A DNA stretch of 64,000 nucleotides, taken from IMG/VR virus record IMGVR_UViG_3300023180_005138, positions 32,001 through 96,000 of that record. One strand, written 5' to 3'. This document shows positions 2,549 through 24,208 of this stretch, piece after piece. Source of the DNA: a virus. Each line of letters opens with the position of its first letter. Position 1 is the stretch's first letter. The translations under genes and the position numbers were made by a program. The notes beneath the pieces were generated by a model that had not been told where the DNA came from, did not search any database, and saw only the letters and a list, made by a program, of their open reading frames with translations.

Positions 2549-3092
2549 GCCTAATTTTACTATCAGTGCTAGTTGGGATAAAGAAATAGAAAAACTTCCA
2601 TATTTTGCTTGTAATGATTATGATTTAAAAAATGCAATAACTGCCTGTGCTATAAAAAGTGCTACAGGAAAAGAAGATGACTTATATAAATCTGAACTAG
2701 AAGATATACCAAAAAATTATAAATATACTAGGTTGATGGAAGTTCCTATTATTAATAAGGTAGTAGATTACTTTAAATTTGAAACTACAAGAATAAGAGT
2801 CTTTAAACAAGAACCAAAACATTCTACTCCTATGCATATTGATAAAGACGATCCTACTATCATAAGAATGTGGATGGCTCTAAATGAAGATGAAAAATTT
2901 AAATTCTTTTTTGGAGAAGAAAAAGAAGAAATAGTTTTAAAAAAAGGAGAAATAATATTCTTTAATCCAAACTATTTACACGGTGCTATTAATTTAAGTA
3001 ATAAAAATAGGTATACTTTAAATATCTGTGGAATTCCTAATAAATGGATAAAAGAATTATTAGAAGTTAGGAACAAGGTAGTATTTTTATGA
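2535..3092 (+). CDS. Asp/Asn beta-hydroxylase-like 2OG-Fe(II) oxygenase
   Basis: RIRVFKQEP.HSTPMHID (HxD), then LHGAIN...RYTLNI (distal His and Arg). Confidence 0.7.
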   Translation: MNYFKPNFTISASWDKEIEKLPYFACNDYDLKNAITACAIKSATGKEDDLYKSELEDIPKNYKYTRLMEVPIINKVVDYFKFETTRIRVFKQEPKHSTPMHIDKDDPTIIRMWMALNEDEKFKFFFGEEKEEIVLKKGEIIFFNPNYLHGAINLSNKNRYTLNICGIPNKWIKELLEVRNKVVFL

Positions 3093-21069: not shown

Positions 21070-22245
21070 GTGAAACGTATTCTACTATTAGGAAGTGGTG
21101 AATTAGGTAAAGAAGTTGTTATTAGTGCTAAAAGACTAGGAATGCATGTAGTAGCTTGCGATAACTACTTCGGAGCACCTGCTATGTCAGTAGCAGATCA
21201 TGATGTTACTTTTGATATGCTTGATGCAAAACAACTTGAACGTGTTATAGATAAATATAAACCTGATTATATTGTTCCTGAAATAGAGGCTATTGCTACA
21301 GAAGTTTTACTAAAGAAAGAAGCAGAAGGATACACAGTAGTACCCTCTGCTAAAGCTGTAAACCTTACAATGAATCGTGATAAAATTAGAGATCGGGCAG
21401 CGGAGCTAGGCATTCGTACTGCCCGATTTTCTTATGCAGAGTCTTTAGCTTCTTTATATTCTATTGCAGATGAAATTGGATACCCTTGTGTAATAAAACC
21501 AGTAATGAGTTCGAGTGGTAAGGGACAGTCGATAGCAAACTCTGTAGAAGACCTAGCTTCTTCTTGGCAATATGCTGTGGATAATATGAGAGGAGACAGA
21601 GAAAAAGTAATCATAGAAGAGTTTATTAAATTTGATTATGAAATCACTCTTCTCACAATTAAACAACAAAATGGTCCTACTTTATTTTGTCCTCCTATTG
21701 GGCACCACCAAGAAAGTGGTGATTATAAACATAGCTGGCAACCTGCTACAGAAGAAACTTTTACAGGACATATTATTGAATCAGATGCTAGACAAATTGC
21801 AAAAACTATAACAGACGATTTAGGAGGTTCTGGCATATTTGGAGTAGAGTTTTTTGTAATAACTTCTTCAGATAGACCAGAAGTTATATTTAGTGAATTA
21901 AGTCCTCGTCCACACGATACAGGTATGATCACTATGATATCTCAAGAATTATCAGAATTTGATCTACATGTTAGGGCATTTACTGGACTTCCTATACCAG
22001 AAATTAAAGTTAGACCTAATAAAAATAAATGGGCAAGTGCTACTATTAATATTCCATCTGATACTAAATCAGGGTTAGTTTATGATCTAGAAGGTATTGA
22101 AGAAGCATTGGAACTGGGATGTGATATTAGAATCTTTGGAAAACCAAGTACAAAACCTAATAGAAGAGTAGGAGTGTTACTGTCTAATAATTTAGATACA
22201 GCACTAGAGGCTCAGAAGTTAGTCAAAATCAAGACGCAAGTGTGA
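21070..22245 (+). CDS. purT: Formate-dependent phosphoribosylglycinamide formyltransferase (ATP-grasp)
   Basis: ILLLGSGELGKEV, PEIEAIAT, IKPVMSSSGKGQS, SELSPRPHDTGM and RRVGV. Confidence 0.95.
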   Translation: MKRILLLGSGELGKEVVISAKRLGMHVVACDNYFGAPAMSVADHDVTFDMLDAKQLERVIDKYKPDYIVPEIEAIATEVLLKKEAEGYTVVPSAKAVNLTMNRDKIRDRAAELGIRTARFSYAESLASLYSIADEIGYPCVIKPVMSSSGKGQSIANSVEDLASSWQYAVDNMRGDREKVIIEEFIKFDYEITLLTIKQQNGPTLFCPPIGHHQESGDYKHSWQPATEETFTGHIIESDARQIAKTITDDLGGSGIFGVEFFVITSSDRPEVIFSELSPRPHDTGMITMISQELSEFDLHVRAFTGLPIPEIKVRPNKNKWASATINIPSDTKSGLVYDLEGIEEALELGCDIRIFGKPSTKPNRRVGVLLSNNLDTALEAQKLVKIKTQV

Positions 22246-22369
22246 CGTCTTAGGAAAGTAGCGCACTCCGTGCGCCCGGCTGTGTCTCTCCGAGACAACG
22301 TGAATGAACATCTTAGGTCAGCGCTGTCCAACAGCTGTTCACCTGCGGTGGTATTTATTCACTAATTAT
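22224..22369 (-). ncRNA. Putative ~145-nt sRNA with three GGA-loop hairpins (CsrA/RsmA-sponge-like)
   Basis: Minus-strand promoter TTGCCG-N17-TATTCT. Hairpins GCTG-TTGGA-CAGC, TGTCTC-GGA-GAGACA and GCGCAC-GGA-GTGCGC. Terminal hairpin AAGACGT-7nt-GCGTCTT followed by GATTTTG. Confidence 0.6.
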
Positions 22370-22375
22370 GCACAT

Positions 22376-22404
22376 AGAATAGCATACTTTTTGCCTTTCG
22401 GCAA
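22376..22404 (-). promoter_or_regulatory. Minus-strand sigma70 promoter for the putative sRNA
   Basis: -35 TTGCCG (22404-22399), 17-nt spacer, TGc-TATTCT (-10 at 22381-22376). Same TTGC-type -35 as other promoters in the window. Confidence 0.65.
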
Positions 22405-22448
22405 GTATATAAAATTAAAATTTTATCGTTGCTCTTTCTGGTGCAACG

Positions 22449-22477
22449 CTGTCATAAAACTGTAACAAAACTGTGAT
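22449..22477 (+). promoter_or_regulatory. Pho box (three 11-bp direct repeats, PhoB-binding site)
   Basis: CTGTCATAAAA-CTGTAACAAAA-CTGTGAT fits the proteobacterial Pho box consensus; candidate -10 TATATT at 22477-22482. Confidence 0.8.
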
Positions 22478-22486
22478 ATATTTATA

Positions 22487-22933
22487 ATGAAACTAAAACA
22501 TATTCATGCTCATATGAAATCTGCTTTTAACTATGCAGAGTGTTCCACAGCCGTCCGTCTTCAGGTCGGCTGTGTTATTGTAAAAGAAGATCGTATTATT
22601 AGCATCGGATACAACGGTATGCCAAGTGGTTGGAACAACTGTTGCGAAGACACTGTATTTTTTCAAGGTGGCAAGCAATTAGTAGAGCCTATACTAAAAA
22701 CAAAACCAGAAGTACTACATGCAGAATCTAATGCTATAGCTAAACTAGCACGATCACCTGAGAGTGGAGAAGGAGCTGTAGCTTTTATTACCCACGCTCC
22801 TTGTTTAGATTGTGCAAAACTTTTGTATCAAGCTGGTATCTGTGAAGTATACTACTCTCATAGCTATAGACTCACAGATGGAATAGATTTTTTAAAACAG
22901 TGTAAGATTAAAGTTCATCAGGTAGAACTATGA
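22487..22933 (+). CDS. dCMP (deoxycytidylate) deaminase
   Basis: VGCVIV...SIGYNGMP, LHAESNAI and PCLDCAKLL zinc motifs. Confidence 0.92.
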   Translation: MKLKHIHAHMKSAFNYAECSTAVRLQVGCVIVKEDRIISIGYNGMPSGWNNCCEDTVFFQGGKQLVEPILKTKPEVLHAESNAIAKLARSPESGEGAVAFITHAPCLDCAKLLYQAGICEVYYSHSYRLTDGIDFLKQCKIKVHQVEL

Positions 22934-23166
22934 AAAGAGTGATGTTTTCTGCTAAATTAAGTGATGAACTTGCAGAAGAACTCACAGATGCTATAGTAGA
23001 GATGCTACAAGAGGAACCTGAGATAGAGATTAAAGATCTATCTCGTAGATTAAAAATAGAGACGATTAATCTTCCCTGGGGAGTTGATTCTCCCTTTGCC
23101 TATATATTTAAAGAAGATCAAAAAACCTGGTGTTGTCTCAAACCTCAATATAGAAAGAGAGACTAA
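22930..23166 (+). CDS. Hypothetical protein
   Basis: 78-aa ORF with ATGA overlap upstream and a 2-nt gap downstream. Confidence 0.55.
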   Translation: MKRVMFSAKLSDELAEELTDAIVEMLQEEPEIEIKDLSRRLKIETINLPWGVDSPFAYIFKEDQKTWCCLKPQYRKRD

Positions 23167-23168
23167 AA

Positions 23169-24128
23169 ATGGATGCAGTAACTATTTGGATGGCGATCGG
23201 ATTTCTCATGGCCGCATATAGTGTTATAGCAAACGATTCAGTCCAAACGCTTGGAACTTGGATTGCATCAAATAACGAACGATTCCACTGGACAGTTTTA
23301 TGGACCGCCTCTTCGGCGGTTTTGCTTTGGGCGCTATGGTTCGGTTGGTATATCAATGGAGGCGACATTTCATATGGTCGCCTAACTAAGATACCTTTCC
23401 AAGAGGTTCAATGGTATCATGCAGCTGCTCCAGCAATCCTTCTACTTCTAACTCGTGTGGGTGTCCCTGTCTCTACTTCCTTCCTCGTTCTCTCTGCATT
23501 TGCATCAACCTTTGTGTTAGAAAAGATGTTGATGAAATCTATCATGGGATATGCTGTAGCAGCTGTCACTGCCTACGCACTTTGGCATATCATTGCTCGA
23601 TTAATTAATGAAAAGAAGCCTATCGGTGATCACTGGAGTCGCCCATACTGGCGTGTAGCACAGTGGGTAACTACTGGTCTACTTTGGTGGACTTGGTTAT
23701 CACATGATATGGCAAACATTGCAGTGTTTCTTCCCAGACAAGTTCCATGGGATTTAATGATTATCATTTCAATCATCTTTGTCGCAGGACTAGGATGGAT
23801 GTTTATGGAACGTGGAGGTAAGATTCAAAATATTGTGTTAGAAAAATCTACAACACGATATATTAGATCAGCTACGTTAATTGATTTAGCGTATTTTGTT
23901 ATTCTCTACTTCTTCAAAGAACTCAATAATATTCCAATGTCAACCACATGGGTATTCGTTGGTCTACTGACAGGACGAGAACTAGCAATTGCTTCTGTAT
24001 ATAATACTAAGATGAAACAAATCTTTCCTTTAGTCACTCGTGATTTTATGAAAATGATGATTGGTCTTGGTGCTTCAGTAGGCATTGTACTATTAATTCA
24101 TTATGTAATTGTACCTAACGGTTACTAG
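23169..24128 (+). CDS. Polytopic membrane transporter, PiT/PHO4 phosphate-sulfate permease-like
   Basis: About 8-9 TM segments; the two inverted-repeat signatures IANDSVQTLGT and SHDMANIA, plus GVPVSTSF and PMSTTWVFVG, mirror PiT motifs (GANDxAN, G.PVSTT). Confidence 0.7.
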   Translation: MDAVTIWMAIGFLMAAYSVIANDSVQTLGTWIASNNERFHWTVLWTASSAVLLWALWFGWYINGGDISYGRLTKIPFQEVQWYHAAAPAILLLLTRVGVPVSTSFLVLSAFASTFVLEKMLMKSIMGYAVAAVTAYALWHIIARLINEKKPIGDHWSRPYWRVAQWVTTGLLWWTWLSHDMANIAVFLPRQVPWDLMIIISIIFVAGLGWMFMERGGKIQNIVLEKSTTRYIRSATLIDLAYFVILYFFKELNNIPMSTTWVFVGLLTGRELAIASVYNTKMKQIFPLVTRDFMKMMIGLGASVGIVLLIHYVIVPNGY

Positions 24129-24160
24129 AATTTAAATTTAAATAGTTCTGGACAATTATG

Positions 24161-24186
24161 GGATAGTGTAGTAAAATACACTATCC
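24161..24186 (+). terminator. Intrinsic terminator closing the permease operon
   Basis: GGATAGTGTA-GTAAAA-TACACTATCC, a perfect 10-bp stem followed by TTAAATTTTT. Confidence 0.75.
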
Positions 24187-24208
24187 TTAAATTTTTGGAG
24201 AAGCTAGA

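Follow-up and report, generated by a model that had tools for sequence, protein, structure and literature searches.

Can a phage sense the phosphate starvation of its host and answer it with a transporter of its own? The question is raised by bases 32001-96000 of the 117,378-bp IMG/VR virus record IMGVR_UViG_3300023180_005138, from a phage described as uncultured, marine and ~117 kb in size. This whole stretch of 64,000 nucleotides is called the window below, and positions without a locus name refer to it. An earlier note on the window had pointed to repeats resembling a Pho box, the site of the response regulator PhoB, in front of a dCMP deaminase gene and a PiT-like permease gene. We consider it likely that the site at 22449-22482 is a PhoB-dependent promoter of SAR11-like type that drives the permease operon, and that the permease imports phosphate. 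Here we infer PhoB binding, phosphate as the substrate, SAR11 as the host and activation rather than repression from sequence comparison and a structural model.

A probable Pho box of host type

The plus strand at 22449-22477 reads CTGTCATAAAA CTGTAACAAAA CTGTGAT, with an 11-bp period. The pattern CTGTNA-N5-CTGTNA has two overlapping matches in the window, both of them here, where 0.17 are expected and none of 100 shuffles reaches two; in the whole genome it occurs nowhere else. Of the first 18 bases, from repeats 1 and 2, 17 agree with the Pho-box consensus of E. coli, CTGTCATAWAWCTGTCAY. The earlier note had called the element a triple repeat. Its sequence is indeed exact and unique in the genome, but the third repeat (CTGTGATATAT, 22471-22481) is degenerate and overlaps the extended -10. 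Relatives vary there (GAT, AGT or ATT), which makes it the least conserved repeat and suggests weaker constraint. On this comparison the element is better described as a 22-bp Pho box of two 11-bp direct repeats (22449-22470) plus a degenerate third repeat. Within repeats 1 and 2, T2-G3-T4 and A6 are invariant across five sequence variants in relatives. Changes within the heptamers are confined to positions 1, 5 and 7, where the host matrix is degenerate too, and a few more are found in the 4-bp spacers. The strict pattern CTGT.A-N5-CTGT.A is absent from 80 related viral loci, and by that measure the box looked non-conserved; once the leading C was relaxed and a host-trained matrix was used, it was seen to be conserved.

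Does the box belong to a type that a marine host would use? To answer this, pstS upstream regions were collected from Pelagibacteraceae genomes. The gene is present in 50 of 81 of them, a tally that includes G073, of which no locus or sequence is used elsewhere. An unseeded motif search in 18 diverse SAR11 pstS upstream regions gave TTGTAACAAAACT(T/G)TAAC, 77-99 nt before the pstS start, and a seeded matrix from 26 non-identical regions gave the same motif. A candidate SAR11 Pho-box consensus, TTGTAACAAAACTKTAAC, results from this and can be tested. When the phage genome was scanned with the pstS-trained matrix on both strands, the first rank fell at 22449 with 20.1 bits and the second at 22460 with 16.8 bits; the third, elsewhere, has 7.1 bits. 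For 40 Markov-1 simulated genomes the maxima have a mean of 10.1 and a standard deviation of 3.6, the highest being 17.8. Similar arrays head phoR in the SAR11 locus L110 (CTGTAACAAAT CTGTAACATAA GTGTAAT) and pstC in the SAR11 locus L120. The motif is thus found before pstS (in the 26 non-identical regions), pstC and phoR of SAR11, which we infer to be the phage's host. The pattern TGTAAY-N5-TGTAAY is scarce in SAR11, with 0-3 copies per genome; further matches in L162, L164, L166 and L167 are intragenic and were treated as chance. Judged by these sequences, the host-type box is YTGTAAY, SAR11-like, and not strictly CTGTCAT. The fit to a proteobacterial PhoB box claimed before stands as far as the E. 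coli consensus goes, with the type of the box to be amended, and the proposal that the phage taps a host phosphate-starvation signal gains support from both the matrix ranking and the SAR11 genes that the motif heads.

The phage itself gives further hints of its host. Its G+C content is 35%, and it carries an alpha-type two-piece tmRNA (RF01849, alpha_tmRNA, 117 bits). Because of the box type, this tmRNA and the base composition, the host is probably an AT-rich alphaproteobacterium and likely SAR11. Its DNA polymerase has 41% identity to those of T5-like phages, and by its sequence the phage is a distant T5-like siphovirus; its NrdA is 73% identical to cyanomyovirus NrdA.

The geometry of the site is that of a PhoB promoter. 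In E. coli, PhoB promoters such as those of pstS and phoA have a Pho box, CTGTCATA(A/T)A(T/A)CTGTCA(C/T), 10 bp upstream of the -10. Here, too, the hexamer TATATT (22477-22482, plus strand), preceded by TGA as an extended -10, starts exactly 10 bp past the 18-bp box, and a -35 hexamer is lacking. A sigma-70 scan found no -35/-10 pair and listed no promoter at 22449-22482. The same spacing recurs with TATACT or TATAAT in the viral loci L201/L207, L204, L035 and L038. The two 11-bp direct repeats, the 17/18 agreement, the spacing and the missing -35 are all as in E. coli. Unlike in E. coli, A stands in place of C at heptamer position 5 of the host-type consensus, T is also accepted at position 1, and the phage -10 lies only 4 nt from a start codon. 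In the window and around the box, Rfam gave nothing except noise (psRNA6, 11.9 bits).

The permease and its likely substrate

What does the promoter serve? The 319-residue permease is encoded at 23169-24128 on the plus strand. PHROG and PADLOC-type routes gave no match for it. The phage collection held no homologue by tblastn and no DNA relative of the locus, and a PDB profile search by sequence returned nothing at E 10. Homologues in metagenomes are plentiful (7,961 of 8,000 scored candidates), and an exhaustive search left 831 representatives at 50% clustering. An AlphaFold (AF2) model built on the homologue alignment has a pLDDT of 94.4 and a pTM of 0.91. With this model Foldseek found only 6L85, which is TmPiT, the Thermotoga maritima phosphate transporter that depends on sodium (SLC20/PiT family; PMC7413737), at probability 1.00 and TM 0.64-0.66, the next matches being at TM ~0.15; it was thus fold comparison only that led to this entry. 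VIA-align, which is independent of Foldseek, compared 48,161 chains and gave 6L85 a Z of 20.0 with an rmsd of 4.5 over 295 residues, followed by 6.7 for the next. As modelled, the permease has the PiT fold, with two inverted helix repeats and re-entrant hairpins, each repeat bearing, as in TmPiT, a first-helix aspartate and a P-x-S-T-T re-entrant hairpin. The PiT-like nature proposed for it from the letters is borne out in this way.

The residues point in the same direction. In TmPiT, phosphate and sodium are bound by D22, S105-T107, D258 and S345-T347, which belong to duplicated x-N-D-x and P-x-S-x-T motifs (PMC7413737). The corresponding motifs of the phage permease, mapped by motif and without residue-level superposition, are N22-D23, P100-V-S102-T103-S104, H179-D180 and P256-M-S258-T259-T260. 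Among 41 diverse homologues N22 is kept in 40, D23 in 37 and D180 in 31; the residue before D180 is H or Q across homologues rather than N, and both P100-V-S-T-S and P256-M-S-T-T are conserved. The phage protein differs from TmPiT in its 15% identity, its length (319 against 401 residues), a PHO4 score below the cut-off and the lack of a Trp in the last helix. It also appears to lack the scaffold/dimerisation helices TM4 and TM5. In the model only residues 146-157, 12 in number, link the helix 114-145 (TM3) to the helix 158-185 (the TM6 equivalent), and the two aspartates are 157 residues apart against 236 in TmPiT. We call this form a minimal PiT. The permease is most likely a secondary, ion-coupled transporter that imports inorganic phosphate, and the gene neighbourhoods of its homologues, given below, lend support to this. 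No phoB, phoR or pstS was found in the phage genome, in keeping with the earlier suggestion of a PiT-like permease in place of PstS.

Cellular homologues with 55-64% identity occur in Pelagibacteraceae, Flavobacteriales, Micavibrio-like and other genomes, those of SAR11 having 55-62% identity to the phage permease. In the SAR11 loci L110, L108 and L117 the permease gene points away from the paired genes of a histidine kinase and a response regulator and is followed by genes for a metallophosphoesterase and a GT4 glycosyltransferase. From Pfam domains alone the latter two are read as plcP-agt, which are lipid-remodelling genes (PMC4796936). In L120 and L122 it is divergent from a histidine kinase, after which come pstS and pstC. 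The kinase and regulator neighbours are read as phoR and phoB from context and domains, without a specific family match. The order in L116 is DUF6552, a low-molecular-weight phosphatase (LMWPc, ArsC-like), a MIP channel and the permease homologue; upstream of this run lies a Pho-box-like site, TTTTAACAAATCTTTAACATAA, of 17.6 bits (L116:1465-1486, plus strand; also in L112), and by its sequence the arrangement suggests a phosphate/arsenate island in SAR11. The Flavobacteriales metagenome-assembled genome (MAG) of L084 has, in this order, genes for a response regulator, a histidine kinase, the permease and an SBF-family protein, the last read as ACR3-like. In two Flavobacteriales genomes the best PhoB-like regulator is found ~1.1 kb upstream of the permease.

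Might the permease carry something else, such as sulfate, arsenate or another oxyanion, or be an exporter, its link to Pho boxes being one of arsenate/phosphate cross-talk? Among NCBIfam models the sole hint is CysP, a sulfate permease of the PiT family (E 0.027), some homologues adjoin the LMWPc and MIP pair or the ACR3-like gene just described, the second repeat has H/Q-D in place of N-D, and the scaffold helices seem to be missing. Against this, the D and S-T-T residues that hold phosphate and sodium in TmPiT are kept in both repeats, and in one viral locus (L039) the permease forms an operon with viral pstS. Furthermore, five permease-bearing genomes outside SAR11 (G086-G090, the genomes of L150, L126, L084, L087 and L143; Micavibrio-like, Flavobacteriales and an alphaproteobacterial MAG) showed neither PstS (PF12849) nor an above-cut-off PHO4, with the proviso that the genomes may be incomplete. 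The only sub-threshold PHO4 matches in them are the permease homologue itself, which is therefore the sole visible phosphate importer there. Considering both sides, we judge a substrate other than phosphate, or export, to be unlikely.

The box in other phages and the history of the operon

Is the combination of box and permease peculiar to this phage? At least 587 stretches of viral contigs contain the permease gene; 80 loci, 569 kb in total, were compared. In a quick tree 25 viral permeases form one clade with 100% support. Every one of the 28 matrix matches that reach 14 bits in this sequence is situated upstream of the permease gene or of its operon, most of them 40-120 nt before the permease start. 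Most of the 80 loci have no deaminase. The box is farther off in the close relatives L002, L004 and L007 (720 nt before the permease, in front of the deaminase) and in L039 (1412 nt, in front of the viral pstS that precedes the permease).

The operon of the window has three genes in a coupled run, as was read before. The deaminase (148 residues, 22487-22933; PF00383 at 72 bits against a cut-off of 25; PHROG 174, 1.4e-52) shows its zinc motifs HAE (HAESNA) and PCxxC (PCLDC) plainly in the sequence. It overlaps by 4 nt with a translationally coupled 78-residue open reading frame (ORF; 22930-23166), which is followed by the permease after a gap of 2 nt. The operon is closed by a terminator-like hairpin with an 11-bp stem, a 6-nt loop and a T-rich tail (24160-24196; the hairpin proper spans 24160-24187 and is followed by TAAATTTTTG). 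All of these features are on the plus strand. The 78-residue ORF (P0286) belongs to no recognised family and had no match above noise in profile searches, PHROGs and PADLOC-type routes included; it is acidic, 77-97% identical in relatives, and occurs in them only together with this deaminase.

Only TATA separates the -10 from the deaminase ATG at 22487, and no Shine-Dalgarno-like purine run precedes this ATG, which agrees with the previous reading of the site. A transcript starting at A22487 would make the deaminase mRNA leaderless; this may be so, as one of two possibilities. The annotated start is probably real, because change in the first nine codons is mostly synonymous among relatives and Met10 as an alternative start would truncate the first helix, though it may be read-through transcripts that serve it.

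Then why does a deaminase gene stand first behind a phosphate promoter? Siblings of the phage, that is, contigs sharing the conserved non-coding element that precedes the box, are of two kinds. Five of them (L199, L200, L202, L205 and L206) have the box-to-deaminase junction of the window, with the repeats TTGTAAC, TTGTAAC and ATGTGAT. The other five (L201, L204, L207, L208 and L209) have the box with TATACT as -10, then a hairpin-bearing leader, pstS and a terminator-like hairpin, and only after this last hairpin the deaminase, the 78-residue ORF and a permease 97% identical to that of the window. The sibling pstS (PF12849, 1e-43) has 51% identity to SAR11 PstS. Since these siblings carry pstS between the same promoter and the deaminase, the phage of the window is, on this comparison, a pstS-less variant; loss here and gain in the siblings both fit. 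From the sequences, Pho control of the deaminase looks like an incidental consequence of the gain or loss of pstS and not like a designed link between phosphate and dCMP, which weakens the earlier idea of a rerouting of dCMP to dUMP.

The shared element itself, 22224-22448 between purT and the box, is G+C-rich, ~95% conserved in relatives, and abuts the box in every one of them whether pstS or the deaminase comes next. Before it, L207 has an ORF of the fatty-acid-hydroxylase family (L207:59-502; PF04116, 3e-15) at the site where the window and L209 have purT, pointing to gene swapping on that side of the promoter too.

The pstS history gives rise to another possibility, namely that the site is a real Pho promoter but a relic, which evolved for pstS and was left at the deaminase after pstS was lost. 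Its control would then be weak or accidental, with the operon mainly expressed by read-through from upstream early genes. The full series of box, leader, pstS and terminator-like hairpin before the three genes of L207 would be expected of such a past, as would L209, where a purT 98% identical to that of the window is followed by the same box and pstS. So would the junction of the window directly after the -10 and the genes upstream, which are co-directional with the operon. On the other hand, the window type and the L002 type, which are diverged sublineages, both have the pstS-less junction; in each the box core is intact, and the heptamer substitutions are confined to degenerate positions. 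Besides, other phages have a Pho box immediately before the permease gene itself, and Pho control of this gene seems to have been selected repeatedly. A mere relic is accordingly, in our judgement, quite improbable. Even less should one expect the repeats to be bound by some other OmpR/PhoB-family regulator or by a phage protein, without reporting phosphate status: many winged-helix regulators do bind 10-11-bp direct repeats, the host is deduced and the 78-residue ORF has a faint HTH_24 match (E 0.025), but the same motif heads pstS, pstC and phoR of SAR11 as well as viral pstS, and its single occurrence in the phage genome is unlike a general phage promoter element.

If the site is a PhoB-dependent promoter, how would it work? 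Phosphorylated host PhoB, arising from phosphate scarcity or from the phosphate drain of infection, would bind repeats 1 and 2, and perhaps the weaker repeat 3, and would recruit host RNA polymerase to the promoter lacking a -35. Transcription would cover all three genes, deaminase, 78-residue ORF and permease, and end at the terminator at 24160-24196. The permease would add ion-coupled phosphate uptake and thus supply phosphate for phage DNA synthesis, while the deaminase would lie under the box for the historical reasons given above. Infection by pelagiphages is itself able to induce pstSCAB and phoB of the host (PMC12753301), and external scarcity may thus not be needed for the promoter to fire.

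Several points weigh against a PhoB-activated promoter feeding a phosphate importer. In about seven of the viral context groups the box points the other way, 40-74 nt upstream of the permease, and by their sequence such boxes do not fit simple activation of the E. coli style; their layout mirrors that of the host in L110, where one box lies between divergent phoR and permease genes. The E. coli spacing would put the transcription start at ~22489, inside the first codon, and the full-length deaminase may then go untranslated from this promoter. The TGn of the extended -10 could allow basal activity independent of PhoB. Conservation of the box alone discriminates poorly, the entire intergenic region being ~95% conserved among close relatives. 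The host-box comparison covers SAR11 pstS promoters, with SAR11 itself a deduced host, and the permease tree gives no host or donor, the cellular sister group of the viral clade being a polytomy. For the permease, the search with PF01384 over 23169-24128 proposed in the earlier note failed to support it: there is no PHO4 or other Pfam match even at E 10 (gathering threshold 33.7 bits), and PHO4 matches in 12 of the 41 homologues are sub-threshold (best 5.2e-7), that of L084 reaching 32.4 bits. Finally, a preprint finds that a SAR11 orthogroup called 'pitA-like' (OG0001433) tends to exclude Pst/Pho (bioRxiv 10.64898/2026.08.15.744057).

Relation to known systems

This orthogroup is unassigned by profile annotation, matches 6L85 in Foldseek and has been proposed as an alternative phosphate transporter in the same preprint, which also cites Tucker et al. 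2025 on it. It appears to be the same family as the SAR11 homologues of our permease. That work concerns cellular genomes and anti-occurrence with Pst/Pho; the gene described here differs in being viral, forming its own clade and being tied to Pho boxes. Our results support a phosphate role for a SAR11 family that was only recently flagged.

Which parts of the system are new? Cyanophage pstS and phoA are reportedly under the control of host PhoR/PhoB, and by that account a phage phosphate gene under host PhoB is already known. As there, a phage phosphate-acquisition gene stands here behind a promoter that a host starvation regulator would read, and some siblings even carry pstS. Unlike the cyanophage system, this one is found in a distant T5-like siphovirus with a probable alphaproteobacterial host, its box is of proteobacterial type, YTGTAAY with an 11-bp period, and its cargo is a secondary permease of PiT fold and not an ABC binding protein. 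Algal viruses, namely prasinoviruses and coccolithoviruses, encode phosphate transporters of the PHO4 family. What they share with the phage is a secondary permease for phosphate, from the PiT/PHO4 superfamily and encoded by the virus; theirs is the canonical eukaryote-type PHO4 of giant viruses, whereas the tailed phages have a short, divergent, bacterial-type form. In the literature that was searched, no PiT-type permease of a phage is reported together with a Pho box in pelagiphages, which is not proof of novelty. As far as that literature shows, novelty lies in the phage group, the type of box, the cargo permease and the architecture without a scaffold.

A wider scenario can be put forward tentatively, with our judgement near balance but leaning slightly to doubt. 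Tailed phages infecting SAR11-like bacteria would share a mobile, monophyletic minimal PiT of ten helices and no scaffold, which has repeatedly been wired, alone or with pstS, to host-type Pho boxes, the promoter being a fixed slot and pstS being swapped by recombination. If this is true, viruses in the ocean would have a major way of acquiring phosphate that has not been described so far. Marine metagenomes contain the permease very commonly. The scenario would further offer a natural experiment on whether a transport domain of PiT type can do without its scaffold, and a PiT form lacking these helices bears on the elevator mechanism. The locus would extend host-controlled phosphate genes to phages of the most abundant heterotrophs of the ocean, and would add a different box type and a single-gene secondary permease cargo to the cyanophage principle.

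Some minor observations concern the regions around permease genes. In the SAR11 loci L112, L116, L118, L119, L125, L129 and L147, a Pho-box-like repeat CTGTAACAAAGCTGTAAC at ~4553 on the minus strand lies inside an ORF for mannose-1-phosphate guanylyltransferase that adjoins the permease gene; it may act as a promoter inside the gene, or be a chance result of coding that close relatives have in common. Where the SAR11 homologue does not adjoin phoR, as in L112, L116, L118, L119, L124, L125 and other loci, a conserved leader ending in ...AAGTCATGAATCGATAGGAACCGAAAACAATAATAT... is found ~130 nt upstream of it (locus ~2870-3000). The SAR11 permease leaders have no Rfam match at E 1 and match no known riboswitch, and this conserved one may be an uncharacterised regulatory RNA or protein site. 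Among the phages, the subgroup L053-L081, which has no Pho box, bears a hairpin in the 5' untranslated region ~45 nt before the permease start (for example at L055:3950-4000), directly before the Shine-Dalgarno sequence of the permease. It is built of GTGAGCG, a stem, GGTAAAG, a stem and AAGCAGAGGAG, and belongs to no Rfam family. Compensatory changes occur in 4 of its 7 predicted pairs among 10 sequences, and the hairpin is a candidate cis-regulatory leader of these permease genes.

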